The notes beneath the pieces are model-generated. The model was not told the origin of the DNA. It ran no database searches and saw nothing but the letters and a program-made list of their open reading frames with translations. A stretch of 64,000 nt of DNA from Chiloscyllium plagiosum (Eukaryota): NCBI RefSeq assembly GCF_004010195.1, contig NC_057736.1, forward strand, positions 929,452 to 993,451. The letters are read 5' to 3'. Below, one piece after another: positions 2,343-59,102 of this stretch (within the stretch, counting starts at the first letter, position 1; every line of letters begins with the position of its first letter). The position numbers and the translations under genes were made by a program.

Positions 2343-4188
2343 CAAAGTTTGTGAGAAGATTTGTAGCTCGGGTGCTCGTTGCTGTGGTTCTGTTCGCCGA
2401 GCTGGAAGTTTTTGTTGCAGACGTTTCGTCCCCTGTCTAGGTGACAGCCTCAGTGATTGGGAGCCTCCTGTGAAGCGCTTCTGTGGTGTTTCCTCCGGCA
2501 TTTATAGTGGCCTGTCCCTGCCGCTTCTGGCTGTCAGTTCCAGCTGTCCGCTGCAGTGGCCGGTATAATGGGTCCAGGTCAATGTGTTTGTTGATTGAAT
2601 CTGTGGATGAGTGCCATGCCTCTAGGAATTCCCTGGCTGTCCTCTGTTTGGCTTGTCCTATAATAGTAGTGTTGTCCCAGTCGAACTCATGTTGCTTGTC
2701 ATCTGAGTGTGCGGCNNNNNNNNNNNNNNNNNNNNNNNNNNNNNNNNNNNNNNNNNNNNNNNNNNNNNNNNNNNNNNNNNNNNNNNNNNNNNNNNNNNNN
2801 NNNNNNNNNNNNNNNNNNNNNNNNNNNNNNNNNNNNNNNNNNNNNNNNNNNNNNNNNNNNNNNNNNNNNNNNNNNNNNNNNNNNNNNNNNNNNNNNNNNN
2901 NNNNNNNNNNNNNNNNNNNNNNNNNNNNNNNNNNNNNNNNNNNNNNNNNNNNNNNNNNNNNNNNNNNNNNNNNNNNNNNNNNNNNNNNNNNNNNNNNNNN
3001 NNNNNNNNNNNNNNNNNNNNNNNNNNNNNNNNNNNNNNNNNNNNNNNNNNNNNNNNNNNNNNNNNNNNNNNNNNNNNNNNNNNNNNNNNNNNNNNNNNNN
3101 NNNNNNNNNNNNNNNNNNNNNNNNNNNNNNNNNNNNNNNNNNNNNNNNNNNNNNNNNNNNNNNNNNNNNNNNNNNNNNNNNNNNNNNNNNNNNNNNNNNN
3201 NNNNNNNNNNNNNNNNNNNNNNNNNNNNNNNNNNNNNNNNNNNNNNNNNNNNNNNNNNNNNNNNNNNNNNNNNNNNNNNNNNNNNNNNNNNNNNNNNNNN
3301 NNNNNNNNNNNNNNNNNNNNNNNNNNNNNNNNNNNNNNNNNNNNNNNNNNNNNNNNNNNNNNNNNNNNNNGTCTTTGTTGATAGGTTCCCGGTCTTGTTG
3401 TCTGTTCTGTATGTCCAGCAGTTTGGCTATTGTTTCTCTGGCTAGGGCTTTGTCAATAGAGGTGAACAGTGCTGTTACGTCGAATGAGACCATGGTTTCT
3501 TCCTTGTCTATATGTATGTTTCTGAAGATGTCCAAGAATTCCTGTGTTGATTGTATAGAGTGTCTGGATCCGCTGATCAGGTGTTTCAGTTTCTGCTGTA
3601 GTTCTTTAGCCAGTTTGTGTGATGGTGTCCCTGGTAGTGATACTATGGGTCTGAGTGGGATGTCTGGTTTGTGCACTTTAGGTATTCCATAGAATCTGGG
3701 GGTGTTGTTGCTTTCAGGTTTCATTCTTTGTAGGTCAAACCTGGTTATCTGTCCATTTTTTGTAGATTCCTCAGTGTGTTATTTATCCTATTAGTGAGCT
3801 GTGGGGTGGGGTCAAACTCCATCTTTTGGTAGCAAGACCAGCTATCCCTAGTAGCCACACACGCAGATGACAAGCAATATGAATTCGACTGGGACAACAC
3901 TACTATTATAGGACAAGCCAAACAGAGAACAGCCAGGGAATTCCTAGAGGCATGGCACTCATCCACAGATTCAACCAATAAGCACATTGATCTGGACCCA
4001 ATATACCGACCACTGCAACGGACAGCTAGAGCTGACAACCGGAAGCAGCAGATTCAAACCACTACAAATGCCGGAGGAAAGATCACAGAAGCGCTTCACA
4101 GGAGGCTCCCAAGCACTGAGGATGTCACCTAGACAGGGGACGAAACGTCTGCAACACAAATTCCCAGCTCGGCGAACAGAACCACAAC
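2343..4188 (-). mobile_element. Penelope-like element (Poseidon-type RT), 5'-truncated with an inverted 3' segment, spanning an N gap; 11-bp TSD ATTTAATGAGA
   Basis: ORF 2699..3724(-) PRFYGIPKVHKPDIPLRPIVS...MVSFDVTALFTSI is a PLE RT; 2343-2715(-) and ~3830-4188(+) are inverted copies of the GIY-YIG C-terminus/3' end; TSD at 2332-2342 and 4189-4199. Confidence 0.9.
4113..4152 (+). ncRNA. Minimal hammerhead ribozyme core in the PLE terminal repeat
   Basis: gcaCTGAGGA-tgtcacctagacaggggac-GAAACGTC^tgc: CUGANGA and GAAA boxes, GUC triplet, palindromic ACGU helix III. Confidence 0.7.
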
Positions 4189-5013
4189 ATTTAATGAGAT
4201 GTCAGTGTAGCTGGCTCATACAGCATTTGTTGCTGACCCCTAATTACACTTGAGAATGTGGTAGTATCACCATCATTTATGCCATAATGAACAGCGATTT
4301 GTACAAAATGAGACGTATTTTCAAATGGCCTGAAAAACTCAAACTTTTCATTTCTTGAGTTCCTTGGATGAGTCTGGAAATGGAGACTCATTTTCCTCAA
4401 AGTGTCTATCTTCGTCACGTATCAGGCTGTAATGTGATACCTCAGTGTACTTACGTTTGGGTTTACTAGGTAAAGAAGTTTAGAATATTTATTTTAGCTT
4501 TTTGGAATCAATTCCTAAAAGCTCAGCAGTCCCCAACCTTCTCAATGTAGTTCTAAGGTTACAAGTAGACACAATCAAGAATTTTGCTATTTACATAAAT
4601 ATAAAAATTTAACCAAAAATTAAACTGGTAATGATGACATGTACTCCTGATGTGCTTTCAAACAGTCGTGTTTTGTTTTGATAAGGGGAGCATGTTGAAT
4701 AATATCTTATACTGTGCCCTTGAAATGGAGGTTTGAAATTTGTGTTGGTTCATGACATTATTGTAGGTCCTGTATTTCTGCTGTGCATGAGTACAAAGTG
4801 CTACACTAATAAGCTGATTTATAGAATTTGAAACTGAAGCACTGCATGCTCACAGGACATTGCATAATTCTTGTCTTCTTTTCTCATTTTACTCAAAATA
4901 GCCAATGTGGCTTGGCCACATATTGTAGATATTTTCTTGATATGTCACCAATGGAACAGAAAAATGAATCTATAGGATTTAGTTAGAGTCTTGGTCCATG
5001 CCTTTTATTTCAG

Positions 5014-5165
5014 TGGAAGTTTGCTGCCTGTTCCTCGTGGCACTCCTTTGGGGTGGAACAAACCCCTTTCTGAAAAAGGGCACGGAGGGAATAGAGAAGG
5101 TTAAGTCTAGAAACATTGTCATTCAGCTCTTCGCAGAGGTTAAGTTTTTATTTCTTAATTACAAG
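5014..5165 (+). CDS. TMEM234: TMEM234 exon 2 (VEVCCLFLVALLWGGTNPFLKKGTEGIEKVKSRNIVIQLFAEVKFLFLNYK)
   Basis: LWGGTNPFLK family motif; acceptor ttttatttcag|, donor AAG|gtaaga. Confidence 0.95.
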
Positions 5166-6080: not shown

Positions 6081-6095
6081 CAATCTATAAATCAG

Positions 6096-6314
6096 GCAGC
6101 ATCCAGGGAACAGGAGAATCGACGTTTCGGGCATAAGCCCTTCTTCAGGAATGAGGAAAGTGTGTCCAGCAGGCTAAGATAAAAGGTAGGGAGGAGGGAC
6201 TTGGGGGAGGGGCGTCGGAAATGCGATAGGTGGAAAGAGGTCAAGGTGAGGGTGATAGTCCAGCAACACATTTTCAGCTCTGATCTCCAGCATCTGCAGA
6301 CCTCACTTTCTCCT
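6096..6314 (-). mobile_element. Short inverted PLE insertion with intact hammerhead (6121-6148, minus); 15-bp TSD CAATCTATAAATCAG
   Basis: Minus strand CTGAAGA-AGGGC-TTAT-GCCC-GAAACGTC; orientation flips at ~6259; TSD at 6081-6095 and 6315-6329. Confidence 0.8.
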
Positions 6315-6774
6315 CAATCTATAAATCAGACAATCTGTCAACTGGTGAGCCACATCAAACAGCACATCTCACTGACCATTCTCAGCTGGAAGCAGCCCAT
6401 TTATACTCAACCCACCCCATGCTTGCCAGGCTCAGAAAAGTGTATCCGCCATTAAATGTGATTCTGTTATTGTAAGACATTTATTAAACAATTAAGTTTG
6501 CACTAAAAGTAAGACTGGAAACCAAGATCATCAGCGTTGCTTGCAGTGCTTATTTTCGAAGCTACGTACAAAAATACTTAGGACCCTGTTTAATGTAGGC
6601 AAAAGGAATTTATATGTACATTGCACTGTTTTCATGGAGAAATGATATGGCCATGGGGAACTGCCAATCTTTGCTGTATTCCCATGGAGATACTGGTAAA
6701 TCAGAATCTACTTGCCTGCTCTGAAAATTAAAATTAATACCATTGGTGTCCCAGCCAATTACCATGCTTATAAA

Positions 6775-12240: not shown

Positions 12241-13535
12241 AGAATTCCAACTATTTGAGACTATAAGTGTAATTTGGAGCATATGTGTATAACTTAAAAT
12301 TATTCCCATCTGTTATTGTGGGTCATCAATAGCCTCAGTTTTATTTATCCACAATTTCTAACCTCATAGCTTGGCACATTTCCCCATCATGCTATTATCA
12401 TAATGCAAGGAGATCAACCCTGCAACAATTAAGAATGCAGGAGGGCATGTCAGGAGCAGCAACAGGCATTTTTATAAACGAGCTGCCATCCTGGTGAAAT
12501 GATAACACAGGGCTCCTTGAGTGCCAAACAGCAGAAATTGTGTACGATAGACAGCTAAGTGATTGCACAACCATTAGATCATTTGCAGCCGTGCCATATC
12601 TAGTCATAAATGGCCAAATAAAATAAAAATATTGCAGATATTGGGTACCTGAAACAAAACCGAATATGCTTGAGAAACTCAGCTGGTCTGGCAAGTTGTA
12701 GAGTGAGAAACAGAGTTCTCAGAATGGTCCTCCTCCAGACCACACACTATCCTGATTTAGAACTACTGTATCTGTGAAATTGTTTCCCGCGATTTACCAT
12801 GGCCTGACATATTGCAGGGAACATTCTAGAACAAGGGACAGGGCTGCCGGGAAGGTAAAATTCCTATTTAAATGAATGTGTTCACTCCTATCCTTGGTTT
12901 CAGGTTTCCGCGGTAGAGTCATAGAGATGCACAGCACGGCAACAGACTCTTCGAAGGTCTTGGAATGTATCCCCCGTGGTTATGGGGGGACTACTGTGTA
13001 TGCTATGCATTCACTGTCACTGGACTCCCTTCCTAATAACGCTGTGTGTACCTACATAACATGGCCTTCAAGATTCTGCACCACCTTCTGAAGGACAGTT
13101 AGCGATAGCCCATCAATGCTGGCTGAACTGACGAGATCCACATCCCATGAGTTAATGTAAAAAAGTCCTTCCCGTTTCCAAATGGTTGTGCCTGTGAATG
13201 AAACTTAGCTCCTGTAAATAGTGACTGGTATATCTCATTAGATCAATTTCAAGCAAAATTTTAACAGCTTCTAAGATTAAAAATGTCCTCATTGTTTAAA
13301 GAATTTTAATTTTGAGATAAATGGTAAGACCAAGGAAAGGTAAAAATATAGGTAAAAACAATGACTGCAGATGCTGGAAACCAGATTCTGGATTAGTGGT
13401 GCTGGAAGAACACTGTTTATCTTACATTTTAATTCACATTTGTGATGTGTTCATTGATAATGGACACAACAATTACTCTTCTTTCTGTAATTTTTGAGAG
13501 GTAGTTAGTCAATAATAAATATTTATTCGTTGCAG

Positions 13536-16772: not shown

Positions 16773-18695
16773 CACCAAGACAGCTAAAAGATTAAATCAA
16801 GCTTTTGGTGGTATTGCTGTGCTTGATCAACTCGTAAAATAAAGATGACATGAAGTAAAGAATGGCAAATGAGAACAACTCTTACCTGGACGTAACTAAG
16901 AATTGGAGAAGAATAAGTAATCACTCTCTAAGATAAACACTTTAAAGATATAAAACTGTCCCACTATTGTTGTGTTTACATTACATCATAGACCTGTACA
17001 GGGGATAAATACTCCAGCTGTCTTCAGTCAGTTGTCAGGTTAGAGTCATTTCTGTTTGGTTAGGAGTCAGCCTTTTTAGATCAAGATCTATTATTGATCT
17101 TTATTAAAATGAATGGGAGGAGCAGCCATTTCCTGATATAGAACAATAATGTGTATTTTTTCCCCCCCGTGATATGTGAGGCTTGCAACACATGATAATC
17201 AAATTTTTTAAAGTCATGCTGGAGACAGATATCTCCACTCCAGTGAATGAGTGACATTGAAAAATTGTAATTGATAATGTCAGTTTGCTGTCTTCTGACC
17301 TTTTAAATGTAATCCCAGAATAATCTTGTGTGACTAGTATTTTTTAAAAATTCTGTGATGCCTTCTTTCTGCCACTAGATGGTATTAATACATTTATAAA
17401 TGTACAACTACTGATTAACAATGTTGTCCCACATGTATCCATAAAATCATAGGCATGTGATAGCCATATATTTTCTATGGAATTTCCAAGATTTTCTCAA
17501 ATAATTTTCTCAAATAATTATGGGCACACACATAAATAATTGCAATTGAAAATACATGGAGTTTCCCACTGGGTGCTCTGGGATATGGAAATAATTTATC
17601 CCCTGCATTAAGCAGATGAGTTTATGAATCTGAAGGACAAATTGGACAAAATGCAAATAGGTAATCATTGTGACCTATTGTGAAGGGATCCTTTTAAATA
17701 ACATTTGTTATCCAGACAGATATAACGTTTGACTAAAAATGATTGTGTTTGACGTGAGTTAATTTAAATAAAAGACCATTTTGTTTTGTATTTATGTTAA
17801 TCTTTTTAGTCACTAGATACATATGTGGAAGATGTTTCCACGTAGCTAGTTTGTTCCTCTTCTAAGTTATAGATCGGTTTGAAAACTGCAAAAACGCAAT
17901 GAGCTGGAATATGGCAGGGGACAACTGTTCTCTTTAAAAAAATCCAATTGTATGAACAAATAATGCAGAATATAGCCACATATGGCAAAAATGTAGAGAT
18001 TAGATTCATGTGCAATGTTCACCCGTTTCCTTACAAACCTGAACATTAAGCTAAGGTATATAAATATAGACATGGACTTGTGGTTAAATTTTAAGATTAT
18101 TCTCCAACCCATTTTGCTGTCTCCCTTGTCTATAATGCAAATGCCAAATTTCTTTTAAAAATCTAAAATGTTTGATCTTCTGTACTGATTAGAACTGCAA
18201 TAAGATTTGCAAATCGCTGAAATTGTTGTATTGAACCAAAATATAATTCAGGGATACATTACAAGTAACTATTGTGCATCCCAAGGTGATAACTAATGGT
18301 CTTTCAGTGTATCTGAACAGCAAAGCCTGATTGACTGCTGAAGGTCAAGGGTAAAGAAATGTTAAGGATCTTATAATTAGAGTGGCTAGCTAGAGTTTAT
18401 TCACAATACCCTTCAAACAACAATATAAGGACATTTGGAGGACAGTTGTACCATGCTGTTGCTGTGGAATCAACAAATGAGGGGTTCTTTGTGAGTGAAG
18501 TATTATGTGCATTATGCCAAAAATTGAAAGCATCTTGATTTTTTTTTTAAAAATGTACTTTTATACAACATTTGGAATTTTACATATTCCTCTCATTTGT
18601 TTCTGCCAGTTTTCACCCATCTTTTCTTTGAAGACTTTCATACATTGCTGGGCACAATTTCATTGTGGTCATTCTCCTTTTCTATCTTCTTGAAG

Positions 18696-18896
18696 TTAAA
18701 AATCACACAACACCAGGTTATAATCCAACAGGTTTATTTCAAAGTACTAACTTTCAAAGTACTAACTAGTTACCTGATGAAGGAGCAGTGCTCTGAAAGC
18801 TAGTGCTTCCAAATAAACCTGTTGGACTGTAATCTGGTGTGGTGTGATTTTTAACTTTGCCCACTCCAATCCAACACCAGCACCTCCACATCATGG
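18696..18896 (+). mobile_element. Inverted PLE terminal-repeat pair (second family) with hammerhead at 18774-18802
   Basis: CTGATGA-AGGAGC-AGT-GCTCT-GAAAGCTA; arms aaaaatcacacaacaccagg / ctggtgtggtgtgattttt; degenerate 14-bp TSD 18682-18695 and 18897-18910. Confidence 0.75.
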
Positions 18897-22215: not shown

Positions 22216-23077
22216 TTAAGAAATTAAGTAAATCCAGCAAAGGACCTTTGATATTGTTTGCAGTGATAGATAAGTATTATATTCTTGGTTAGTGGATTAA
22301 AAACGTTTTTTGAATGGTTGGCATATTGTATTATGGAAGCATATCTATGGACCTTTTGTAAGAATATCTATCCATTTTCGAAACTGGAAAAACTGGAAAT
22401 ACATCCAGTATTCAAACTGTGTAATTTTTGTGACTGTGTGTTAGTGGTGTGAAGTCAGAACAGTCTCTTTTAATAATTGAGTTAGACTTTGTTTATTTTG
22501 ACACAAGGACTTCAGTAGCAGAGCCAATGCTGAATTTTGACACTCTTTGTTGAATTGTAGGGCTGCACTATGTAACTGTGCCAAATGGCTTGGTAGAGCT
22601 GTTCATTTAGTACTACTCCTTGTTTTCTTTAAAATTTATGTTTAGGATGTGGACATCTGTGGCGATACCAGCATCTGTTAGTAGTCATCCCTAATTGCCC
22701 AGAATGTGATTAAGAGTCAACCACATTCTATGGGTCTGGAGTTACCTGGAGGCCTGACTAGGTTACAACAGCAGATTTACTTCCCTAAAAGACATTAGTG
22801 ATGCAGATGGGATTTTACAACAATTGACAGTGGTTACAAGATCCCAATAGGCTAGCTTTTAATTTGAGATTTTTATTGAACTCAAATTTCACTATTTGCA
22901 ATGGTGGAATGCACACCCTCAACAGGCTTGCTGAATTACTCATCCAGTTTCAATACCATATGTCACCAACTCTTCAATTCTCCATAGCCTTACAAATTTG
23001 TTTCCTTCAAACACTTAATCAGATCTCTTTTAAATACTGCTTCTAAATCTACTCTCCCACAGCGATAGTGGAGGCAG

Positions 23078-24333
23078 GCCAATAACAGAAACCCTGGAGC
23101 CTGTAACCAAGACCCCCACAGCCCGTTACAGAGATTCTGGAGCCTGTTACAGAGACCCCGGAGCGTGTTACAGAGACCCCAGGGCCCGTTACAGAGACCC
23201 TGGAGCCCATTACAAAGACCCTGGAGCCCGTTACAGAGACCCTGAGCATGTTACAGAGACCCCGGGGCGTGTTATAGAGACCCCGGAGCCTGTTACAGAG
23301 ACCCCGGGGTGTGTTACAGAGACCCCAGGGCGTGTTATAGAGACCCCGGAGCCTGTTACAGAGACCCTGGAGCGTGTTACAGAGACCCTGGAGCCCATTA
23401 CAAAGACCCTGGAGCCCATTACAGAGACCCTGAGCATGTTACAGAGACCCCGGAGCGTGTTACAGAGACCCCGGAGCGTGTTACAGAGACCCTGGAGCGT
23501 GTTACAGAGACCACGGAGCATGTTACAGAGACCCCAGGGGTGTTACAGAGACCCCGGAGCGTGTTACAGAGACCACGGAGCGTGTTACAGAGACCACGGA
23601 GCGTGTTACAGAGACCCCAGGGTGTGTTACAGAGACCCCAGGGCCCGTTACAGAGACCCCGGAGCCCATTACAGAGACCCTGGAGCATGTTACAGAGACT
23701 CCGGGGAGCATTACAGAGACCCCGGAGTCAGTAACCGAGACCCCGGAGTCAGTAACCGAGACCCCGGAGCCCGTAACTGAGACCCCGGAGCCCGTAACTG
23801 AGACCCCGGAGTCCGTAACCAAGAGCATGGAGCCCGTAACCGAGCCCCCGGAGCCCATAACCGAGAACATGGAGCCCGTAACCGAGACCCCGGAGCCCGT
23901 AACCGAGACCCAGGAGTCAGTAACCGAGACCCCGGAGCCCGTAACCGAGACCCCGGAGCCCGTAACCGAGACCCCGGAGTCAGTAACCGAGACCTCGGAG
24001 TCAGTAACCGAGACCCCGGAGCCCGTAACCAAGACCCCGGAGTCAGTAACCGAGACCCCGGAGCCCGTAACCGAGACCCCGGAGCCCGTAACCGAGACCC
24101 CGGAGTCAGTAACCGAGACCCCGGAGTCAGTAACCGGGACCTCGGAGTCAGTAACCGAGACTCTGGAGCCAGTAACCGAGATCCCGGAGCCAGTAACCGA
24201 GAGCATGGAGCCCGTAACCGAGACCCCGGAGTCAGTAACCGAGACCCCGGAGCCAATAACCGAGACCCTGGAGCCAGTAACCGAGACCCCGGAGTCAGTA
24301 ACCGAGAGCATGGAGCCCGTAACAGAAACCCTG
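23078..24333. repeat. 21-bp GC/CpG-rich minisatellite, ~59 units (GTTACAGAGACCCCGGAGCGT grading to GTAACCGAGACCCCGGAGCCC/TCA)
   Basis: Direct tandem array; + frame reads (VTETPE[P/S/R])n. Confidence 0.97.
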
Positions 24334-24622
24334 GCCGATGTCAAACAGCAACAGAGAATTAGCAGAGGGTAGCAAGAAGGGGTGATGAACCTTATTGCAG
24401 TAAAATCTTGCTTTATATTCAGTATTTCAGGATGGCATCAGAGCATGGCGACTTTTTTTTCGCATGCGAGAAAACACTTTTCGCTTTTTTGTATACATGT
24501 GACAATCAATCTAAGTCTCAGCTGTCCATTCCAGATCACAACTTTCTGCCGAAGTAATGTTTTCCTCATGTTGTCTTTGATTCTTTCACCAATTAAACCA
24601 GGATCTTCTGTCTCAATGACCT

Positions 24623-30280: not shown

Positions 30281-30435
30281 GACCTTATTTACATTATGTA
30301 AGGAAATTGGTGGGCTTATAAGGCTAGAAAAGATTTCAAATTACACTGTAGATGTTGGTAGTCAGGCTGAAGCAATATTAATGTAAGATTCACAGCTTCA
30401 GTAAATTATTCCTTCTCTACAGATTTTTTAGAAGT

Positions 30436-30585
30436 ATGACTGAGGTTTTGGGGGAGTCTGAGCCACAAACTGAGTCAGTGACATTAAATTCAGAAACTAA
30501 AGCACTTGCCGAGGATGGTGAAGCACCATCGGTACGTACAAAAGTGAAGAAAGATATTGAACAGAATAAAAAATATACATGTGAG
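30436..30585 (+). CDS. Unknown gene X, coding exon A (MTEVLGESEPQTESVT...KKYTCE); exon starts at 30423
   Basis: Acceptor ccttctctacag|, donor GAG|gtaaga; stop-free; phase 0. Confidence 0.7.
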
Positions 30586-34132: not shown

Positions 34133-34758
34133 GCGGAATCAGCAGATTGTGAAATGGTGAAATGTGGCAAGTTCTGCTGTTTTATATGTTCATTCTACTT
34201 GTCATTTCAAATGGACTGCCAGGATTTCAACAGGGCAAGACAAGTGGTCAGTTGGGAAAGAGTAGGTAAGTGGTAATGTCATTAGACCAATCTTTAAGAG
34301 TCCAGGCTAATACTCTGAGAGCCAGAGTTCAAATCCCACCAACCTGGAATATATACCATGATTCTCAAAAATCATGGTAAATGGATTGTTTGTAAGAATC
34401 CAAATGATTTGCCAATACTCTTAATGGAAGGGATCCTGCCACCTTTAACTGGTCTGACCTACACGTGACTCCAGACCCACAGCAATGTGGCTGACCCTTA
34501 ATGACCTTCTGAAATGCTTAGCAATCTCTCAGTTCAAAGGTAAATGGAGCTAGGAAAGAAACACCCACCTTGCTAGATGTTCTATAACCTAGGAACAGAT
34601 AATGAGAAAAGAAAATTAGCTTGACCACTTTTGACATTCATTAAATCAGACAATACTTTGGTCATTTTCACTGTTTAGTTTGCTTGTATCTAAGCTGTAC
34701 TTTTCTATATAAATATATGTCACAGCATCACCAAAACACCTGCCATCTCTTTCCACAG

Positions 34759-34844
34759 AAATGCGCTGAATGCGGAAATGGTCAGCACTTAAAGAGAAAT
34801 TACCAGGGAAACGGTGAACAAACTCCAGCAATTAAGTCCTGCAG
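34759..34844 (+). CDS. Unknown gene X, exon B (KCAECGNGQHLKRNYQGNGEQTPAIKSC)
   Basis: Acceptor ctctttccacag|, donor CAG|gtattt; phase 0 to 2. Confidence 0.7.
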
Positions 34845-36805: not shown

Positions 36806-38668
36806 GTAATTATGTCTATTTTCATAACTTAATCTTTTTGAGGTATATTTTAACAATTTATTTGAGTTTTTTTATTGCTTAAAAAGAAGGGGAGAAACTT
36901 AAATATTTTTCATCAATAATTCCAAGGTAAAAATAAAGAATTCATGGGCCATCGTCCAGCTCTTGCATTAGAGAGAGATGATTGGTGGTGGGTTCACTTG
37001 AGAATCACCATGCCTCAGATGAGGGGCGAGGTTGAGAAGGAGAGTCCTTTATGGTAATCTCAGCCAGTGCAGGAATTGAACCCATACTATTGGCATCACT
37101 CTGTATTACAAACCAGGCATCCAGCAACCTGAACTAACTGACCCCCAAATTGGGGGAATTTGATATTCAGTCACTGAACCAGTGATCCTGATGATGCACT
37201 GTGCATTGTATGGTATCCTGTAATGCCCTTGCCAGTGCAAAACTACAGCTCTCTCTTACACATGACCAACTTTATGCAAACAATTTAGTATAAAACTATA
37301 ATATATAATGTATGCATACTACTGACAAATAAACATTAACATAGTGGAATTTAAATTTTTAATGATTCAATTAACATAATTAATATATGTTTATAAATAA
37401 AGTGATGGTTCAAGTCATTTTTAAATTTTACCAGTGAGGATCGACTCGTAGAAAAGAGAGGTAGCCCAACAAATGGAAGGAAAAGTTCTCAGAAGACCAT
37501 GAACTACGATGATGGTAGGTCTATGTTCAAGATCCTGAGAAATGATCAGATTCAGTGTCAACACTAAATTACAAATACTGACATAGAGCTCACAATATTG
37601 AATGGGCCCCATGTTCAGGAGGCAGCAAACAGCAACAGCTCTTAAATGCAGCACGTACCATGTGAGTATTGTCTTGGCCAACTGAAGACATAGCTGGAAC
37701 AGCATCTCCTTCAGATGCTCCTTGCAAGCTGCTCACATTGGAAAGGCAGCAAAGGTTGATTGTTCTCAATGAGATGTCAATTTACTTTCAGATCCAGGTT
37801 TCTTGACTAACCAAGTAAATACAATGTTCACCAGCAGAAGGACCTGGAAATAGGTTTGTCAGAAACTTTAGCACTCGTTACAAGGTATTACACTTACTGT
37901 TCCATTTCACTTTTGAACATACTAACTGTTGGTCCTCAGAAAGGACTTCTTCTGAAGCATTGAATGAATTCCCATATCATTGTGAAGCTCTTTATTCCCA
38001 GTATTTAAAATGTATTTCGTGCATGTTTGGAAAGATGAACCTGCAAAGCATGTTTCATTTCTTATTAACACATAATGCACAGTACAAAGTCACTGGTTTA
38101 TTCCCATTTGACCATGTGCTGCGAGATCTCATTCCTTCTGTTTGCAGTATAAAGCTAGTCAAAACAAAAGAGAGCAGACTTGAATCAGAGGAGGACTTTT
38201 ACTGCTTAAACTCCTCATATGGTCCAATTACGCTTCATCGGATAGAGAGGATGTGGGCCATTGAAGCTGGAGGACTGAAATATCAGGAAAGTGCTGTTCT
38301 TTTCACATGACCCTGTCTCGCCCTCCTCCCACACTCACTTTCCCATTCACACAAATATTTCAGAATCCAATATTGACCAAGCCACCACTCTAACACATTA
38401 TTCTTTTTTTGTTCTGTAGGTTTATGGAGAAAAAGGCAGCCTGAAGCTAGCACCCCCACAACACTCAGTGTCACTAAGTCCATCCATAGCAGCTCAGTTA
38501 CATGCACCAGCCTCACCTGGTAAAGTGCAGGGTGTTGAGGTGGATACTTTCCACCAATCCCTGTGAAACAACTTACAATGTTCCACATGTGGGAGTTCTG
38601 TAAAATTCACCATAGCAAGAACAAGGAGAACCAAAATAAATTTCTTCCGTTTCGATAATTGTTACAGA

Positions 38669-38979
38669 TGCTGCCTGAACTGCTGTGCTCTTCCAGCACC
38701 ATTGATCCAGAATCTGGTTTTCAGCATCTGCAGTCATTGTTTTTACTAGTTGATTTTAACCCTACTGCGAATCCTCTTGCAAGGATGCCTGCCTTGAAGA
38801 AGTTTTCCTCCTCTCTCTACAAGCCACGCTTCAGGCTCTCTGCCTTTATTCCTGATGAAGGGCTTTTGCCCGAAACGTCGATTTTGCTGAAGCTCCTCGA
38901 TGCTGCCTGAACTGCTGTGCTCTTCCAGCACCATTGATCCAGAATCTGGTTTCCAGCATCTGCAGTCATTGTTTTTACC
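38669..38979 (+). mobile_element. PLE-derived element: 232-bp unit plus ~80-bp terminal direct repeat, intact hammerhead at 38852-38879, 13-bp TSD TAATTGTTACAGA
   Basis: 38667-38746 repeated at 38899-38978 (1 mismatch); CTGATGA-AGGGC-TTTT-GCCC-GAAACGTC; TSD 38656-38668 and 38980-38992. Confidence 0.85.
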
Positions 38980-39089
38980 TAATTGTTACAGAAAGCCCAT
39001 TGACCTGGAGGTTTCCCGTGTTTCCGTTGGGGTTATTTTGTCACAGTTCTCTAATACAAGTGCTGCACGATATCACAGAATTTTAAGCG

Positions 39090-40010
39090 CACCCCAGGGA
39101 TCGTTAATGGGATCTTTCCTTTTAATGATCTGGATCTTGCTGTGCTGGGGACAATTTCAAATTTTCCAGGTGATGCTAAACCTGGAAAGAATTGTAAACT
39201 CTGAGGAGGATAGTGTGGGACTGTGAAAGGACATCAACGAGTTGGTGGCATAAGCAGAAAGGTGGCAGATGAGGTTCAGTGCAGACAAGTGAGAGGTGAT
39301 GCACTTTGAAAGGCAACAAGAAATAGGGTGTATAATAAAGGTGGTGCAGGAGCAGAAGGAGCTGGGTGTATACATGCACAGATCAATGAGGGCAGCAGGA
39401 CAGGCAGAGGGAGCCATTAATAAAGCTTATAGTGTCCTTGGCTTTATTAATAGGACATAGGAGCAAGGAGGTGATGATGAACTTGTACAAGACACTTGTT
39501 AGACCTCAGCTGGAGTACTGTGTACAGTTGTGGGTGCCACATTATAGGAAAGGTATGAATGCATTGGAGAGAGTGCAGCTTTGCAAGAATGGTTCAAGGA
39601 ATACAAACATCAGTGATGAGGATAGATTAAAGAAGATGGGAAACACAGGAATAGGAATAGGCCAGTCAGCCCCTAAAGCCTATTTCACCATTCAGTGAGG
39701 TCATGGCTGATCTGGCTAAATCCAGATTTCTTTCCTTTGCTCTGTATCCCTTAATACCTCAGCTTAACAAAAATGTACCTGTCTCAGATTTAAAAATAAC
39801 AACTGATTCAACTGTCTCCTGGGTGAGAAGACAACTGAGTGGAAATTTGATAGAGGTTTTCAAAATCATAAGATGATTATTTGGGTTGAAATAGTGTACA
39901 AGGGTACAGGGAGAAAGCAGGAGATTGGCATCAGGTAATGAAGGCTCATTTGGTAAGAGTTGGTGCAGCCAGGATGGGCTGAATGGCCTCATTTTGTGCC
40001 GTAAATATCT
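39090..40010 (+). mobile_element. Degenerate CR1 RT/3' region
   Basis: NLYKTLVRPQLEYCVQLWVPHYRK (ORF 39432..39698). Confidence 0.7.
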
Positions 40011-40391
40011 TGTGGTTCTGCCAAGAGGTTCAATGGCATTAAATGTTTCATGGTCTTTACACTAGTTTAAAAAACATTAAGCTAACAGTCAGGCAATTGG
40101 GAGTTTCTGCTAATTCTGCTTGTTTGCAGATTTTCAAGGAGACTCTGGGTTATCAATATCAAAGAATTAGAATGTCGTTTTACTTAATTTACTGAGGAAC
40201 TGATATTGTCCTGCAATCTAACTGGAAAACAGCTATTAAATATAATGTTCTATCATTTAAAATTAGGTTGACACAGGATTGACACAAAGTAAAAGTGTTT
40301 GCAGTAACAAATGCTCAAACCCACCGTAACTTAAGAGAATCAATTGCACCTAAGGACAGTGGTGCTTTTTCCTATTTGTACATAAGATGAA

Positions 40392-40594
40392 GTTAAAAAT
40401 CACACAACACCAGGTTATAGTCCAACAGATTTAATTGGAAGCACACTAGATTTCGGAGCATCGCTCCTTCATCAGATGAAGGAGCGATGCTCCAAAAGCT
40501 AGTGTGCTTCCAATTAAACCTGTTGGACTATAACCTGGTGTTGTGTGATTTTTAACATTGTACACCCCAGTCCTACACTGGCATCTCCAAATCA
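40392..40594. mobile_element. Near-perfect palindromic PLE end pair (82-bp arms around A40474), hammerhead core on minus strand
   Basis: 40392-40473 is the reverse complement of 40475-40556 (3 mismatches); minus strand CTGATGA-AGGAGC-GAT-GCTCC-GAAATCTA; TSD tacata(a/g)gatgaag at 40379-40392 and 40595-40608. Confidence 0.85.
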
Positions 40595-41429
40595 TACATA
40601 GGATGAAGGCATCATTGACAAAGGCAGCATTTACTGCCCAGAAGGTAATTAAGAATAAACAACATTGCTGTGCGTCTGTTGTCATTAAGACTTCTGTCAT
40701 TAATTTGAGCACCAAGGTATGGCGATTGACAAAACCTTTCACTCTTTTTTTGTAAAGTGCATGTGACAATGAATTGCTATTCTAATCTATTCTATTCTAT
40801 AAAGACCAGGAAATTTCCCTTCCCAAAAGGGTGTTAGTGGACCTGACTGATTTTCCTCTTGTGATAATCGGTGCCATTAGGTTAGCTTTTTATTGAATTC
40901 ACATTTCTGTATCTATACATGAGCAATATTGCTGAGGTGCAGATTGTGCTGTGACTATTTCAGCCCTAAAGTCAAACAGCAGATAGAAGACATTGAAGAA
41001 GACATTGTTGATGAAGATCTTGATTTGATTAACAACTTGATCAATCATTTAACAGAGTGGGTTTTGAACCCACAACTCAGAACATTTACCTGGGATTAGG
41101 TGGATTATGAGTCCAGTGACATTACTACTATAAACTATATCCCTATGTTTGATGGCTTGATGCCACCTGTCTATTAGATAACCATTTTATTGGATTGACA
41201 TTAAAAAATATTAGTGATTTCCTCTAATAAGATGGGACAGTGGTGAAAGGATTAGGAGATGAATTTGTGTAAAGAGTCTGAAATTCACCAGAAGTGAATT
41301 TGAGTCAGATTTCCACTCAGTGATCTGACTCATCACATCCTGGGGCTGACTGGCTCTCAATCATATCTCAGCATGGTACAGTCCCAGGAGCCTGAAATTG
41401 CACTGCTGACTGCAACAGCTTAAAGGGAC

Positions 41430-43910: not shown

Positions 43911-44325
43911 GTACATGCCAGGAAGTTGTAGAAATGTTTTATTCTTAAATTGTTGGTCTTGGCAATGATGCTGCTTGGTTGCCGTTCACTAACACTCAGC
44001 GCACAGTGTCTTAGTAAGGCAAAACCAGACTGGACAATAAGCAGAGTGCAAAGGTCTGTCCTGAAGTCACTCACCAGGTTTGTAATGGAACCGTGAGTGA
44101 TAGCAGATGGTTTGACTTTGTGGAGTATCAAAGTTGAACTGAAATTGTCCTCACCCGGTTTCCACACGGAAGTTCGTTACTGGCAATGAGCAGCTAGAGC
44201 TCACCATATCCAGGCTATCTGGGATATCAAACAGAGATTTCCTGGGTTGTATTTGGCTGCTAAACCATCAGGGGACACCATCGTTTGTGTGTGTCATGAT
44301 TGTGAATGTTTCAATTTCTGCACAG

Positions 44326-44530
44326 ATTGTGAGCTTCAGTCTGATCATGGGCAATGTAAAGTCCATCACATCAGATGTTACAACTGTGGTCGTAGAAAGA
44401 GTAAGCAAGAAGATGATTGTTGTGGGGACAAAGGCAGTTACAGTCATCGCTGTGTCAAAGAGAAAACAGATGAACACTACTTTGATTCCAGGATAAATGA
44501 TGTTCCCTCGAAACACCTTCAAGAAAAGAG
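44326..44530 (+). CDS. Unknown gene X, exon D, Cys/His-rich (NCELQSDHGQCKVHHIRCYNCGRRK...HLQEK)
   Basis: Acceptor tttcaatttctgcacag|, donor GAG|gttagt; phase 1 to 2. Confidence 0.7.
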
Positions 44531-47500
44531 GTTAGTCATAAAAAGATTTTATAAAAGTATGAACACAGGTCTTAAAGGGGCAAATGTTTGCTATCCAACT
44601 GCAAACTAATATACGTAAGCATTCCCATGACAATATCATTGTGTACTATCTGAGAGATGCTGTCATTCTGCCCTCTGTGTAACAAGGTTCTGCATGAAGT
44701 CCCACTCCAGGGCTTCAGGATAAGCATCAAGGTGACACTCTGATACATTACTGAGGGAATGTGTTACCAGGGTCGCATTTGCCTGCACAGCTGGATGTAC
44801 ATAAAATCCCAGAGTATTAATGTGAAGGAGAGCAGGACAGTTCTCGTTAGTGTTCTAACCAAAATTTACCCCATCCATCAACATCACACAAAACAGCATC
44901 TGAGCATGATCACATGTTCCTTTGTGGGATCTTGCTGTGTACCAACTGTCTGTGTGTTCCCCCCATTATAGTAGTATATCCACTTCAAACGGTACTTCAC
45001 TGGCTACATGTAAAGTGCTTTGGAACATCCAGTGGCTGTGAAAATGACTATAAATATGAATCTTTATCGGCAGAACTTTCAGTAATATCATCTCTTCACC
45101 ATCATTACTCAATGTCAGTTTAGTTTGATATTAATCATCAGAGTGAAGGCTTTGATTTTATGAGGGTAATTGTTCTCATAATTTGTTGGCACTGTACCAC
45201 TTTTCTCTTGTTAACTAGGCTCCAGAGCCTAGAATACCGTGGGCAGGGGCACAGGCTCGGAGCCAGGCATGTGCCGTCTGCCATGTTGGGCTGAATCTAA
45301 TGCTTTTTATTTGGCTAACTGCCTGTTCCATTGAGTTGCTTAGTAAGAAACCTCTCCTTAAAGTCTTTATCCTTCTCCCTGAAGGACTGCTCTCATTCCT
45401 CAGCCCCTCAGCCTCGATTCCTGCTGCGATCATACAGAATCCAGCATGCCAGAGGGTGCAGCATCCTCTGTCCCGATTATACCATAGAGCCTTCCCTAGG
45501 CCACTCCAAGCTACATCCTCAGCAGCCCTACTGCTGGCCAATACATTACAACTAAAAGAGGTGTGCCTACTGCTCTGCCAACCCCTTTCCCAGGCCAGAA
45601 CCACATTAATCAATCAACATTTTGTAGCATTCAATAGACTCCATTGTCATAGTCACATGATAATGATGTAGGGATGCCCCCTTCCCCCACAGTACCTTTG
45701 GAAACAAGTGATGGGATACTTTTGGCCAAGGTTCATCTCCTTGTAAGTCATCAACACTAACATCTACATCACTGAGATGACAATGGTCAATTTGAATGAT
45801 CCCATGACTTGGTGTAAATTGCCTTTCACCAGGATTTGAACTGTGAGCACATTCACTCTGTATTGCAAATGATTGGAGAAATTATTGCAGATGAAATGTA
45901 GCTGGAATTTGCAAATGTATTTGCCTGTTCACTGTCCAGCAGACATGTACGTAGCAAACTCTCCCTCAAACTGACACCGCCTGGCCCCTTTCTGGGTGTG
46001 ATCCTGATTGTTTTTCAGTTGTATTTCTCAAACAGAGAACAGGAGGTGAGGGCAGGGAGCAGAGTTCACGGTGAACACCATCAGCACTGGGTGCCACGCG
46101 TCACCAGCCAACAACATACCCGCTCTCCCCCTTCCCCCTCCTCCTCACCCCTAAGAGCCTCCATGCCCCCTCTGACTTCGCTCTACCCCGGCAGCTCATC
46201 TCCACCCACCTGCACGCCCCATATAGAGAGCCAGTTACCTCCTACTGCCCCTCCGTGCTCCCGAAACCCAGCATTACACCTGAATGATAACCGTCCTGCT
46301 CTTCCACACTCCTCCCTCCCCCACCCCCACACTGGAGATCATGGTCGCAATAAGTGCCAATTACCCACCTCCTGGAGCCTGTCATACCCTCTGATGCTGC
46401 TCTGCATACCTTCGCCAAATACCTCAAAAGTCACCTATCACANNNNNNNNCACCCCAGCCCTGACTCCCATTGCTGTTTAGTGCTGCCACAAATCGAACC
46501 CTAACCCACCTCCCCCAGACCCTGTCCAGATTCCATCCACAACTCGATGGATGCCCAGGACATTTGCAGGCCTAGACAGTTCGCCTAAAAAGCCACTCTT
46601 CTTGTGATGCAGTGGTGGCGTCTGAACAAGGAAGCCTGGGTTTAAGTCCTACCTCCTCCAGAGCTGTGTAATAATAACTCCAAATGAACGGATCAGAAAA
46701 TATCTACATTAGCAGGCAATCTTCTCAAGTGAGTTCGTGAAAAAACGTTGCTGCAGCTCACTGTTCCCCACTACTGTCTCAACCCTCTCCTCATGACTCT
46801 AGTCTGGACCCCATATTCTGGTCTGCCACAAACCAGTCCCTCTCTCTCTCAGTTGTCTCAATCCTATTTTAGCATAAAGCTGAGAGCCACTTTCTCTGAA
46901 GGCAATTTGCCTAGCAGCTTGCTGCAGGTGAACCCAGCTCCCAGGTTTCCTCGAAATGAGGACTAAGCCACCAGGAGTGGCCAGCACCATCAGGTACCCA
47001 TTGCTAGGTCACTGTGTAATGCCACTCTATTATGAAAGCAACTGATTATTGTAAATGGTGCTGAGTAATGTATGGGACATCATGTACAGAATGACTAGCC
47101 AACCCTGAATTGGGACTGGCTTCTATTTATTCTGCTCAAGAAATTTTCAACAAATTTCTAACGGTATGTACGAAACAAATCCATTCAAGCACTCAACGCT
47201 CAGACTATTCCTTGTGTATGTTATCGGTAAATTGCCTGTCATCATTCCTCACATGAAGCAACAAATGACTTCATTTAGAAAAGTAATCCATCAGTTGTAA
47301 AACCATCTTGGAACATCCTGAGGATTTGATTGTGATTTTATTTTACTTTCATGAGTTTTTCTATAGTCCAGAAGCATTTCATTTTTCAATCAGGTTCTGA
47401 ATTTCTCAAATCTATATTATGGGTTGTAGCTGTCAGGAATCGCCTTTCTCACTGTTGCATTATCTCTCAAGCATTATGAAATTATAGCAATAGACTAGAT

Positions 47501-47993
47501 CAAGTGTGTGGTATCCTAGATACAGAAACAAACTGAGAGTGAAGAATAAACAAGTTGAGATTAAGGTGGCCACAGAAACCAGTTGAAGTATTTTGAAAAG
47601 AAATAACAAATGGTTAGCAGAGTCAGAAAGAACCTCATAAGGTTTGGTCCAGACAGACTTGAGGTAGTAACTCTGAGAGAAGGCAATGGATAGAGAGAAA
47701 AGGTAGAGAATTCACAAGATTATCGTAATTTACAACTGGAATGAATGCCCTTCTGCTACTTCTTCCTCAGGAAATTTCAGTCTCTCAAAAAAAATTCAAG
47801 AGAATATTTAGTAAAAAGAAAAACACAGGCTTGTTAGCACCCCAGTCTGATGGTTCCAATGTTTTTAAATGTTACAAGATAAACTTGTTCTTCTGCAAAT
47901 TGAGCTAAGATTTTCTAAATTATTTCCATTTGTGCATGACAATTTATTTTCACAGGCTATCTATTTATCATTTCAATGTTCCTCTTTCTCTAG

Positions 47994-48282
47994 TCTCTTT
48001 GCTTGGAATAACGCAAATCCTGAAAACCAGACTGGCAGAGCTTGGATCAGGCAGAGTTCCTCACTTCTTCCCTATGACTGGGAGGATGACTGTGAGATGG
48101 TTGATTGGGTAATTGATCAGTATGTACAGGATGATCACAGCATCGCTGCATTCTACAAGGGCAAGATCATTCAAACCTTGAATGATGCTTTGGGAATCAC
48201 ATCAGAGACTGCAAACTCTGAAAACCTTCCAAAAAAACTCCAAAACCAATTGCTTGATACAAACATTCCAGACATCCCAAAG
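47994..48282 (+). CDS. Unknown gene X, exon E (SLFAWNNAN...YDWEDDCEMVDWVIDQYVQDDHSIAAFYKGKIIQTLNDALG...DIPK)
   Basis: Acceptor ttcctctttctctag|, donor AAG|gtagtc; phase 2 to 0; 289 nt stop-free. Confidence 0.7.
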
Positions 48283-49622
48283 GTAGTCCAGCCAATCATG
48301 TGCTTTCTTTTTCGTTAAATTTAAGTTGAAATGAAAATGTTCATTCTGTCTTATTTATGTCTTCTGTAGTCGATACCATTGGTTCTGGCTTACTCCCACA
48401 TATGGCAACTCAAGCGTCTTTCTTCTTGTAAGAATCTGGATGATAAAAGGTGACAGTTTGCCTACTGTCAGCACTATATCAGCTGAATTCTGGAGAAGAG
48501 TCAAAACTGGACTCGAAACATTTGTCTCCCACCACAGACACTGCGGGACTTGCTGAATTTCTCCAGCACTTTCTGTGTTTGCTTCTGGTTCTCCTCTCAT
48601 TCAATGAGAATGGATGTACAGTTTCCACCAATATTGGTGACAAATTTGGGAGAATTGTGTGATTTGGCCAATGAACAGCTTCCCAATATCGAGAGCAAAA
48701 TGTCCCATTTTCCAGCTGAGTGTTGAAGAATGAGATGTGATTCTCACAGAAAAATGGTGAGAGGGCTCTTTACATACATTAACATATATTAACATTAATT
48801 AACAACCCATTATTTCATCACCTCTCCTCACTAATATGCAATTTCCTATTCTACTCATACCTCCAACTCCCTGCAGATAGAAACCAGATGGAGACAATTC
48901 CCTATATGAAAGTCCAAATAGGTTCCTGGAGACTCCAGTTCACCTCTTGCCCCTCCAGACCTCCATCAAACACCATCATCTCACGGCACACTCCATAGGT
49001 AGTGACCACACACACCTTTCCCCCCACCTCCATTCATCAGGACCCCATGTGCCAATTCCTCTCTGCATGATACACCTGGAACAATTGGCAGGAATTGTAT
49101 GGGGAAGCTGTGGATAGCCAGCACTTGACTGGGTGCCTGGCTGGACTTTAAAAATAGTGCCAGGAATCCCGGGACATCTCACCAGTGGACAGTGTTTCTG
49201 CCTGTGGTGAGTGGGACAATACAGGTGTCATAGGAAGTAATGAGGAGAGTGTGGGAAGATAGTGTGAGCAAACTCAGTAGAACTCACAGAGAGAATCCCT
49301 CCGTGAAACTCAACAAAACTGACACTTTATCGATTTCTGGTAAAGTTTAGCCCAGTATTTTTGAGGCCTTGAATATCTACAGTCTATTGGAATGTTGGCC
49401 TTTCACCTGAAGGATAAGGTTCAGCACGGGATACTTCAAACTCACGTAACACAGTTGTCACATGTTGGACAATCTGAAATGGAGGCTGGCATTTTCTGAA
49501 CGAATTTCTGTGTTGGTAGGTGTTTTAGCTTGTGGGGCACACTCTGATTACCACAGAGGGAACCCAGTGGATCTTGAGCCTATCAGAAACCTAATTGGTT
49601 TCCTGGTTAGCTTTTTGGTGCA

Positions 49623-49822
49623 GCAGGTCAGGCAGCATCCAAGGAATAGGAGAATCGACGTTTCGGGCATAAGCCCTTCTTCAGGAATGCATTCCTGAAG
49701 AAGGGCTTATGCCCGAAATGTCGATTCTCCTGTTCCTTGGATGTTGCCTGACCTGCTGCGCTTTTCCAGCAACGCATTTTCAGCTCTGATCTCCAGCATC
49801 TGCAGTCCTCACTTTCTCCCCA
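49623..49822. mobile_element. Palindromic PLE end pair with hammerhead cores on both strands; 14-bp TSD AGCTTTTTGGTGCA
   Basis: ~70-bp arms centred on aatg|catt (49689/49690); TSD 49609-49622 and 49823-49836. Confidence 0.85.
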
Positions 49823-52035: not shown

Positions 52036-52198
52036 CTCTGTTCTGAGTCTGCTGTGAGTGATTGCCAACCAGCTGAAGAACTCCCAGAAATAGAATCCCT
52101 AAAACCCCTGAATTCACGCCCTCCAACTCCCTGCAGCAGCCCTCCTGTATTATCAGATATTGCTCCTCCACCAGTTGAGCCTGATATATGCCAACAAG
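52036..52198 (+). CDS. Unknown gene X, exon F, Pro/Ser/Glu-rich (LCSESAVSDCQPAEELPEIE...PPPVEPDICQQ)
   Basis: Acceptor tgtctttccttcag|, donor AAG|gtacag; phase 0 to 1. Confidence 0.7.
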
Positions 52199-53670: not shown

Positions 53671-53929
53671 TAAATCAAACATTGCTGCCGTGGAAATTTA
53701 CATACTGGGCTTCAGATTGGTTTCACAGGTCTGCGCAACAGCTCGGGGCAAAGGGCCTGTTCTGCGCTGTAACGTTCTATGTTCTATAAAGAAGGTGTAC
53801 AAACAAAAAGGTGGGGTGGTGAGAGTGGAAATCAGAAAGGGACGAAACATTGGTTAATAGATGACAAACATTTGCAGTTAAGTCATACTTACAGTCTACA
53901 ATTCATTTTTTGGTTTGATCTTTGTCCAG

Positions 53930-53976
53930 CTGAGGAAGACCAACATTGCAAAGAGAATCCTGAAGAATGTGATTAA
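53930..53976 (+). CDS. Unknown gene X, last coding exon (AEEDQHCKENPEECD*); exon extends to donor at 54017
   Basis: Acceptor gatctttgtccag|, phase 1; TAA 53974-53976; donor CAG|gtaaag at 54017. Confidence 0.55.
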
Positions 53977-58179: not shown

Positions 58180-58591
58180 GTAAGTACGTTTATGCATTTC
58201 CATCTTACTCTGTCCACGAGCTAAAGTTCCTGTGAGTTTGAAAACCTTTGTGAATTTGTTTTTACAGAGCCAGTAAAAAAAAACAGACCATGCCTGACCT
58301 TCAACATTTGTAAGAAGTCCATAGCGATAGACTAGGGAAGTCACAGTTTAATCCAGTTTACTAAAATTCCTTTAAATTCTGCCTATGCATCAATCCAGAT
58401 TATTGCAGGACAAATCTCAAATTATTTACTTTCAACTTTTCTGTCTTTTTCATTCCTCCTTTTCCCAATCTTTATTTTACTTTCTATTCCTCACTTAAAT
58501 AGATGGAATTTATTTTTCTCGAGGTTCAATTCATGGTTTGGATTCTGTGAACAGAGCCTTTAGTCCCCGACAGGGGCAAGAGTAGATTAGT

Positions 58592-58726
58592 CAACATTTC
58601 AGGCATAAACCTTTCATCAGGAACGTCGATTTTCCTGCTTCTTGGATGCTGCCTGACCTGCTGTGCTTTTCCAGCACCATACTCTCGACTCTGATCTCCA
58701 GCATCTGCAGTCCTTATTTTCTCTTA
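58592..58726. mobile_element. Short inverted PLE end fragment
   Basis: Degenerate minus-strand hammerhead followed by plus-strand aacgtcgattttcctgct...ctgatctccagcatctgcagtcc. Confidence 0.6.
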
Positions 58727-59102
58727 GTTGGAAGATTAGACAGCAGCTAAATTCATCAATTGCCCCAAGCTCCTTTTCCAGAAGTGGGGCTGTGAGATTG
58801 GGATGGGGGTGAGGCCAGGGCTTTGGAGGAATATAGGTGAACATACTTACCATATTGGGCCTCCACGTCAAGGTGAATCAGGCCACTGTACATCATTTGC
58901 AAGTTTTAGAGGTTTTGTTTTCCTCTGGGAGGCTGCCCTCTCCCTGAGCAAGTGTAATCCATTAACTTGCTGAATTTTCCAGTCGGGAAACAGGATAAGA
59001 ACAGGGGGAAAGGTGTACAGCTTTTGAGATCTAAGAGAAGGCTACACTAACTCCACTTCAAAGAGTTGCTCTCTATTGGGACCAGTGTTCAAGCAAACCA
59101 CT

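Follow-up and report, generated by a model that had tools for sequence, protein, structure and literature searches.

A hammerhead-bearing 311-bp insertion in an intron of the shark Chiloscyllium plagiosum probably derives from a Penelope-like element

Genomic setting and structure of the insertion

The 64-kb window analyzed here, which comprises positions 929,452 to 993,451 of contig NC_057736.1 of Chiloscyllium plagiosum, contains a gene model on the forward strand with exons at 5013-5165, 30421-30579, 34756-34842, 37430-37561, 44313-44534, 47992-48288, 52039-52194 and 53926-53973. A protein of Chiloscyllium punctatum shares 97% identity with the exon at 47992-48288. The C. punctatum protein designated 'TMEM234 isoform X1' combines a TMEM234-like first exon (5013-5165) with exons of LOC103185676 in Callorhinchus, the latter of which begins with the exon at 30421, and the C. 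punctatum isoform may fuse two genes. The insert under study lies on the sense strand between the exons at 37430-37561 and 44313-44534. A 100-nt stretch at 38421-38520 (+), 135 nt upstream of the insert, is preceded by a pyrimidine tract and AG and followed by GGTAAAG; it is unmatched by either homologue and possibly is an alternative exon or a chance occurrence. The open frame at 37819-38307 retrieved nothing from Pfam, PDB sequences or the Atlas.

The insert spans 311 bp (38669-38979), equivalent to 1.34 units, and is flanked by a 13-nt target-site duplication (TSD), TAATTGTTACAGA, with the left copy at 38656-38668 and the right copy at 38980-38992. A direct-repeat search of 38300-39400 identified an 80-nt repeat at 38667-38746 and 38899-38978 with a spacing of 232 nt and identity at 79 of 80 positions, the sole mismatch being T at 38721 and C at 38953. 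The initial annotation had described a TSD-flanked insert of this length composed of one 232-bp unit plus a direct repeat of ~80 bp, and both descriptions were borne out. The final 2 nt of the left TSD copy (GA) and the initial 2 nt of the right copy (TA) fit the element as well as the target, and therefore the boundaries are uncertain by 2 nt. At the 3′ join the unit reads on as TAGTTG and the target as TAATTG, with five of six letters matching. When the tandem array at 23.0-24.4 kb was left out, exact 13-mer pairs separated by 250-400 bp occurred at four places in the 64-kb window; two of these are parts of longer duplications, and the TAATTGTTACAGA pair is located exactly at both insert ends.

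Four public sequencing runs, from 24 that were listed, were aligned to 38450-39200 at 88% likeness. Runs X1 and X5 are DNA of organism A, X10 is DNA of the related organism C, and X21 is poly(A) single-cell RNA. Contig 9 of organism C, with a depth of 2, covers 38451-38655 with 68 letters left, and depth 2 is seen again from 38996 to ~39045. An empty allele would end at 39047, which compares with the observed end of the contig at ~39045. This single depth-2 contig appears to represent the orthologous site in its empty state with one copy of the target, and the duplication thus looks genuine. The right-hand junction of the insert is present in X1 and X5 with no mismatches, the flank depths in X5 being uneven (33 and 7). 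The insertion is real and clean, and probably is recent.

The upstream copy of the terminal repeat (38667-38746, +), which corresponds to the 3′ part of the pseudo-LTR (pLTR), is truncated at its 5′ end as judged from the repeat search and the contigs. It begins 20-22 nt downstream of the equivalent of the hammerhead cut site that is described below, and it lacks one C at 38745 that is found in 35-42 contigs per DNA run. The next segment (38747-38823, +) is post-pLTR sequence of the parent element and consists of a 38-nt leader and 13 codons from an ATG at 38785 that presumably mark the start of the open reading frame (ORF) of a Penelope-like element (PLE); it is delineated by the joint 38979→38747 in X5 and by a continuation shared by 41 X1 contigs. 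The frame reads MPALKKFSSSLYK from the ATG at 38785 to 38823. The internal junction (38823-38824, +), a deletion or template jump, is marked by loose contig ends behind 38823 and before 38824, and is followed by a remnant of the 3′ region of the parent directly upstream of the hammerhead (38824-38847, +), at which 192, 126 and 187 contigs arrive in X1, X5 and X10, respectively. A complete end module headed by the hammerhead occupies 38848-38979 (+), as supported by contig starts at 38848, and includes the downstream copy of the 80-nt repeat (38899-38978, +), which is the 3′ end of the element.

The 83-aa frame that runs across the insert had no relative of similar length, with none among 303 longer candidates at E values up to 10, and matched no Pfam family. 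The 31-aa ORF-start peptide produced one match (E = 1.8e-4), to a mussel tandem-repeat protein with 8 identities in 17 positions, which was rejected as chance. A six-frame scan by the family fragments in the window for the reverse transcriptase (RT) or endonuclease motifs of the parent yielded three stretches, none of them credible, and no GIY-YIG/RT ORF adjoining these fragments was found within the 64 kb; 13 codons are all that is present at the insert. Four scans of metagenome, viral and prokaryote collections for exact matches to the junction, ORF start and hammerhead patterns returned nothing, a result that carries no evidential weight as shark DNA is not expected there.

A minimal hammerhead motif in the terminal repeat

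A minimal type I hammerhead motif, CUGAUGA-A-GGGC-UUUU-GCCC-GAAA-CG-UC, is located at 38852-38879 (+) within the terminal repeat, as is the case in PLEs, and was assigned from its sequence, its fold and the features set out by Cervera and De la Pena (PMC4209133). The predicted cleavage site is 38879|38880, and the motif includes an ACGU palindrome for a dimeric helix III. In the fold of the focal motif, helix II has a pair probability of 0.97-0.98, compared with values of at most 0.026 for helix I and 0.0 for helix III. The hammerhead had been regarded as intact; the core indeed is complete and the prediction for helix II is strong, but this description does not extend to helices I and III. 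The combination of a 6-bp helix I, a helix III stem and a loop 1-2 contact that characterizes canonical type I hammerheads is not displayed at the focal locus. Searches with Rfam revealed no hammerhead at the gathering score in the whole window, nor at E values up to 10 in 38640-39010. Two Rfam matches at E values of 1-1.8 were attributed to chance.

The pattern comprising the core plus helix II had five matches in the 64-kb window versus none in 100 shuffles. An alignment of 11 motifs of the window misplaced the Poseidon-type copy, and pair counts were made independently of this alignment. The circular fold of the 232-nt unit is unremarkable (z -1.16), 25 of 200 shuffles being equally good, and the linear fold has a z of -0.68. 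The focal hammerhead resembles the minimal hammerheads of PLEs in possessing the full core, an extra base after A9, the G10.1-C11.1 pair, a palindromic CG at 15.2-16.2 and a short helix I, as well as in the absence of a helix III stem and the occurrence of many solo copies (PMC4209133). It differs in that helix II is 4 bp in length versus 7-8 bp in the Schistosoma motifs, and sharks are not named for minimal PLE hammerheads in the accessible portion of that article. A literature search that combined hammerhead ribozyme, cartilaginous fish and Penelope found no paper.

The internal junction in sequencing runs

Behind position 38823, the continuations of 41 X1 contigs share a single consensus (agreement 0.66), which is absent among the entries listed for X5 and X10. 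This consensus keeps the frame of the ATG over the 10 codons shown, a weak indication at such length. Before position 38824, the arriving contigs of all three DNA runs enumerated above share one pyrimidine-rich consensus (agreement 0.61-0.65). Moreover, four of the eight X10 pieces listed span 38746 to 38821-38823 and then end. There is no microhomology at the join. As the continuations on both sides are shared, the two halves normally are apart and the junction is a break in a longer repeat. Thus, at 38823|38824 the ORF start of a longer, very abundant element abuts its 3′ region. The initial annotation had proposed as its alternative an internally deleted PLE, made up of 5′ pLTR, ORF start and 3′ pLTR, and had named as a refutation of its main proposal a junction that is unique to the locus and has both flanks aligning to the ends of a full-length PLE. 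Both flanks read into other shared sequence in many contigs, which answers to half of that refutation and supports the alternative.

No piece that spans the junction was present among the 24 pieces listed of ~138,000, and a contig with a unique junction may have been too short to rank among them. Contigs spanning 38823|38824 leave no loose end and therefore are uncounted in the loose-end tally. A second copy of the middle of the unit (38740-38852) was not found in the 64-kb window. Depth throughout the insert exceeds that of the flanks thousands of times over. The summed contig depth over the insert in X1 ranges from ~8e4 to 6e6 compared with 7-8 on the unique flanks, which shows that the repeat is very abundant but is not a copy number. 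Both copies of the 80-nt repeat carry letters that are in the minority or evenly split in the family (T at 38702/38934 and G at 38704/38936). Such shared minority letters fit one template copied twice as well as they fit a subfamily, and count against the single-event reading that is favored below.

The 5′ edges of the family fall most commonly at 38848, 4 nt ahead of the hammerhead core, at which 569, 504 and 571 contigs start in X1, X5 and X10, respectively, with unrelated sequence upstream (agreement 0.32-0.33). This accumulation of edges lies 32 nt upstream of the cut site and suggests that transcripts start or the RT stops at this position.

Joints between different parts of the element were recorded on 96 occasions. 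Among the 15 that were listed, positions 38692, 38710, 38776, 38802, 38805 and 38813 are connected to 38833-38857, such that the joints run from the end of the pLTR or the beginning of the ORF into the hammerhead region; the normal end-to-start joint 38979→38747 (X5) and the opposite-strand joints 38665/38848 and 38668/38899 also are included. The joint 38776→38848 leaves a 30-nt extension, which is the size of the PLE 'tail' (PMC8557442; PMC11167929), and would connect an end module with such a tail to another module that follows. Its depth is 42 in X1 and 114 in X5, against flanks of ~7-8 and 7-33, respectively, and it is not among the joints listed for X10. Some short derivatives may be multi-copy on the basis of this depth, which also counts against the favored reading. 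A head-to-tail joint, 38980→38850, that would correspond to modules of ~131 nt is present in all three DNA runs. This joint would put two hammerheads in tandem, and the focal insert is the weaker retrozyme candidate of the two. The sides of the joints are short (20-36 nt) at 88% likeness with mostly unknown letters between, such that other repeats could yield them. Singly the joints are weak, but jointly they suggest that the family repeatedly makes such connections with differing breakpoints. A spectrum of breakpoints is expected if the joints form anew during insertion.

In X21, of which ~2% was read, 1437 reads were aligned, and 98% of the reads diverge from the locus; six reads cover 38805. 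No pile-up of read starts or ends was seen in this run, and a poly(A) library cannot reveal circles or cut ends.

Origin of the insert and relationship to known elements

The family to which the insert belongs has the layout of a PLE, with a partial tandem of pLTRs, 5′ truncation, inverted adjacent copies (49621-49820) and a tail, and the parent appears to be a PLE on the strength of the RNA motif and this architecture. The parent may belong to the Neptune clade of PLEs. A PLE integrates as a partial tandem in which a 5′-truncated copy ahead of a fuller copy forms the pLTR (Craig et al., 2021; PMC8557442). The PLE protein of an anole cuts AT-rich DNA at ATT and initiates reverse transcription at an internal site of its RNA (Frangieh et al., 2024; PMC11167929), and in rotifers the pLTRs of PLEs hold the first 12 codons, the TSDs are 8-10 bp and one internally deleted derivative has been described (Arkhipova et al., 2013; PMC3846280). 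The focal insert is like insertions of endonuclease-bearing PLEs in possessing a direct terminal repeat followed by an ORF start, 5′ truncation, a short TSD, a 2-nt overlap at the 5′ join, an AT-rich target with ATT, and inverted copies elsewhere in the family. It is unlike these insertions in being without nearly the whole body, and the parent is known here from its terminal parts alone. Moreover, 77 nt follow the upstream repeat in contrast to the 30-40-nt tail described for PLEs, the TSD is 13 nt versus 8-10 in rotifer PLEs (PMC3846280), and the RT start site of the anole PLE as characterized in the accessible text is not homologous to the target (PMC11167929), unlike the TAGTTG/TAATTG similarity at the focal insert.

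Overall, the focal insert most likely is an ordinary deleted PLE insertion. More specifically, it probably is a single retrotransposition product of an abundant shark PLE, that is, a template-jump insertion that would be private or low-copy. The endonuclease of the element would make cuts staggered by ~13 nt in an AT-rich intronic target, and reverse transcription would start at the usual 3′ end of the family (38979), perhaps aided by the similarity between unit and target at that join. After 156 nt, the RT would jump, within the same or to another transcript, to codon 13 of the ORF and would then copy 77 nt of ORF start and leader followed by 80 nt of the upstream pLTR, whereupon the product would join the target via the 2-nt GA overlap. 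The arrangement of a 232-bp unit plus repeat would be the usual partial tandem of pLTR, body and pLTR, from which almost all of the body is absent. As the insert stops 20-22 nt inside the upstream equivalent of the cut site, a linear RNA that extends from pLTR to pLTR suffices as template, and with one copy of the junction and one hammerhead no circle or multimer is required.

Two other histories would involve linear RNA or DNA only. The locus could be a daughter copy of a recurrent non-autonomous mini-PLE, in which a deleted master composed of pLTR, ORF start, 3′ end and pLTR is transcribed into linear RNA that is mobilized in trans by a PLE protein. In favor of this history, pLTRs are sufficient in trans in a rotifer (PMC3846280), MRC1 is an example of a non-autonomous PLE that has pLTRs (PMC8557442), and the ORF start that the unit retains is where the proposed protein-binding and RT-initiation region of the anole PLE lies (PMC11167929). 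The clean TSD, the near-identity of the repeats and the apparent multi-copy state of the 38776→38848 joint also are as would be anticipated. Nevertheless, there is no second copy in the window and no junction-spanning piece among those listed, and related joints differ in breakpoint, leaving this history rather unlikely. The focal insert shares the retention of both element ends and loss of the ORF with MRC1 of Chlamydomonas (PMC8557442) and the R2 SIDEs (PMC6765202), but these are families mobilized in trans, whereas the insert is known from one copy. Alternatively, a longer PLE copy may have inserted with the same TSD and lost its middle later through ordinary DNA deletion. The same sequence would result and both flanks of the junction match the parent; that the upstream repeat is without one C and differs at one base means that some later change happened. 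Against such a deletion, the family consists mostly of short end modules (38848 is the start of ~500-570 contigs in each run) with long precursors in the minority, and no longer allele was seen, although contig alignment could not have shown one. A deletion after insertion is judged to be distinctly improbable.

The principal proposal of the initial annotation was that the insert is a greater-than-unit cDNA of a small circular or self-cleaved RNA, possibly from an undescribed shark retrozyme family. Multimers of a non-LTR retrozyme would self-cleave to a 232-nt monomer that circularizes, and a PLE RT would copy the circle 1.34 times. Metazoan non-LTR retrozymes occur as dimers to multimers with mostly canonical hammerheads and are expressed as circles (Cervera and de la Pena, 2020; PMC7229834). 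Li, Clavereau and Pollet (2026; bioRxiv 10.64898/2026.07.22.740005) require at least two hammerhead-bearing units, accept minimal hammerhead motifs too, and found such elements, which they derive from pLTRs, in 20 of 31 vertebrates including the sole chondrichthyan sampled. The focal insert is similar to these retrozymes in that it encodes no protein, has a unit of 200-300 bp within the metazoan range (220-240 bp in a coral; PMC7229834), a type I hammerhead, a GC content below 50% (47%), a TSD that exceeds 4 bp and pLTR-related sequence. Rolling-circle copying has been proposed for PLE tandems (PMC4209133), and the head-to-tail joint 38980→38850 recurs in all three DNA runs. However, retrozymes have a hammerhead in each of two or more units, whereas the insert has 1.34 units with one minimal hammerhead, and therefore it is not classed as a retrozyme. 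With one hammerhead at the locus, monomer release by double cleavage is impossible. Furthermore, minimal motifs are inactive as monomers and have low activity as dimers (PMC4209133), cleavage was observed in one of nine dimers by Li et al. (10.64898/2026.07.22.740005), the eight other frog retrozyme dimers being uncleaved, and insertion by the anole PLE in vitro needs no hammerhead cleavage (PMC11167929). The unremarkable circular fold noted above and the commonest 5′ edge of the family, which is 38848 and not the cut site, point in the same direction. The retrozyme proposal thus is without positive support, given that the locus has a single, minimal hammerhead and a single copy of the junction and that a linear template accounts for its length, and we regard it as very unlikely. 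Equally doubtful is that the locus belongs to a recurring shark mini-element that retains only PLE cis signals (pLTR, ORF start and hammerhead) and moves as a self-cleaved circular RNA, which would be a retrozyme at birth from a Penelope parent with the founding deletion preserved; a recurring family that relies on linear RNA alone is likelier, if still improbable.

Retrozymes derived from PLE ends already have been reported, including from one cartilaginous fish. As a single dead copy the focal insert is minor, since the repeat family populates the genome densely and has yielded very many products. Its value is as a specimen of how one PLE template jump may generate a hammerhead-bearing 232-bp unit in a greater-than-unit layout, and in the proposal of Li et al. 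(2026; 10.64898/2026.07.22.740005) retrozymes originate from seeds of such a kind. Should the junction recur, the unit would define the smallest cis-acting sequence that PLE mobilization requires and would allow the circular-template model of PLE tandems to be tested directly.

The window includes at least eight related end fragments. One of these had been placed at ~13349-13412 on the reverse strand in the initial annotation and was recovered at 13350-13413 (-); it is a separate 3′-end fragment of the same subfamily with the same end point and 93% identity. Pairs of end modules that are head-to-head or rearranged, with the inversion at or close to the hammerhead, are situated at 49621-49820, 58591-58730 and 6092-6320, of which that at 49621-49820 is head-to-head. 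A second, different PLE-like element at 2380-4189 has an inverted structure (2380-2715 versus 3854-4189, 91%) and carries, at 4116, a minimal hammerhead of its own in which helix II is different. An RT-like frame in this element (3372-3778, -) scored 0.96 to eukaryotic clusters in the Atlas, with DUF8422 on 24-28% of members and RVT_1 on 14-15% of lower matches. A third hammerhead-bearing repeat family is represented at 18774 (+) and 40475 (-) with a helix II of GGAGC/GCUCY; the sequence at 40388-40595 is palindromic and related to 18691-18894. Finally, units of ~21 nt form a tandem array at 23077-24334, both strands of which contain long open frames.
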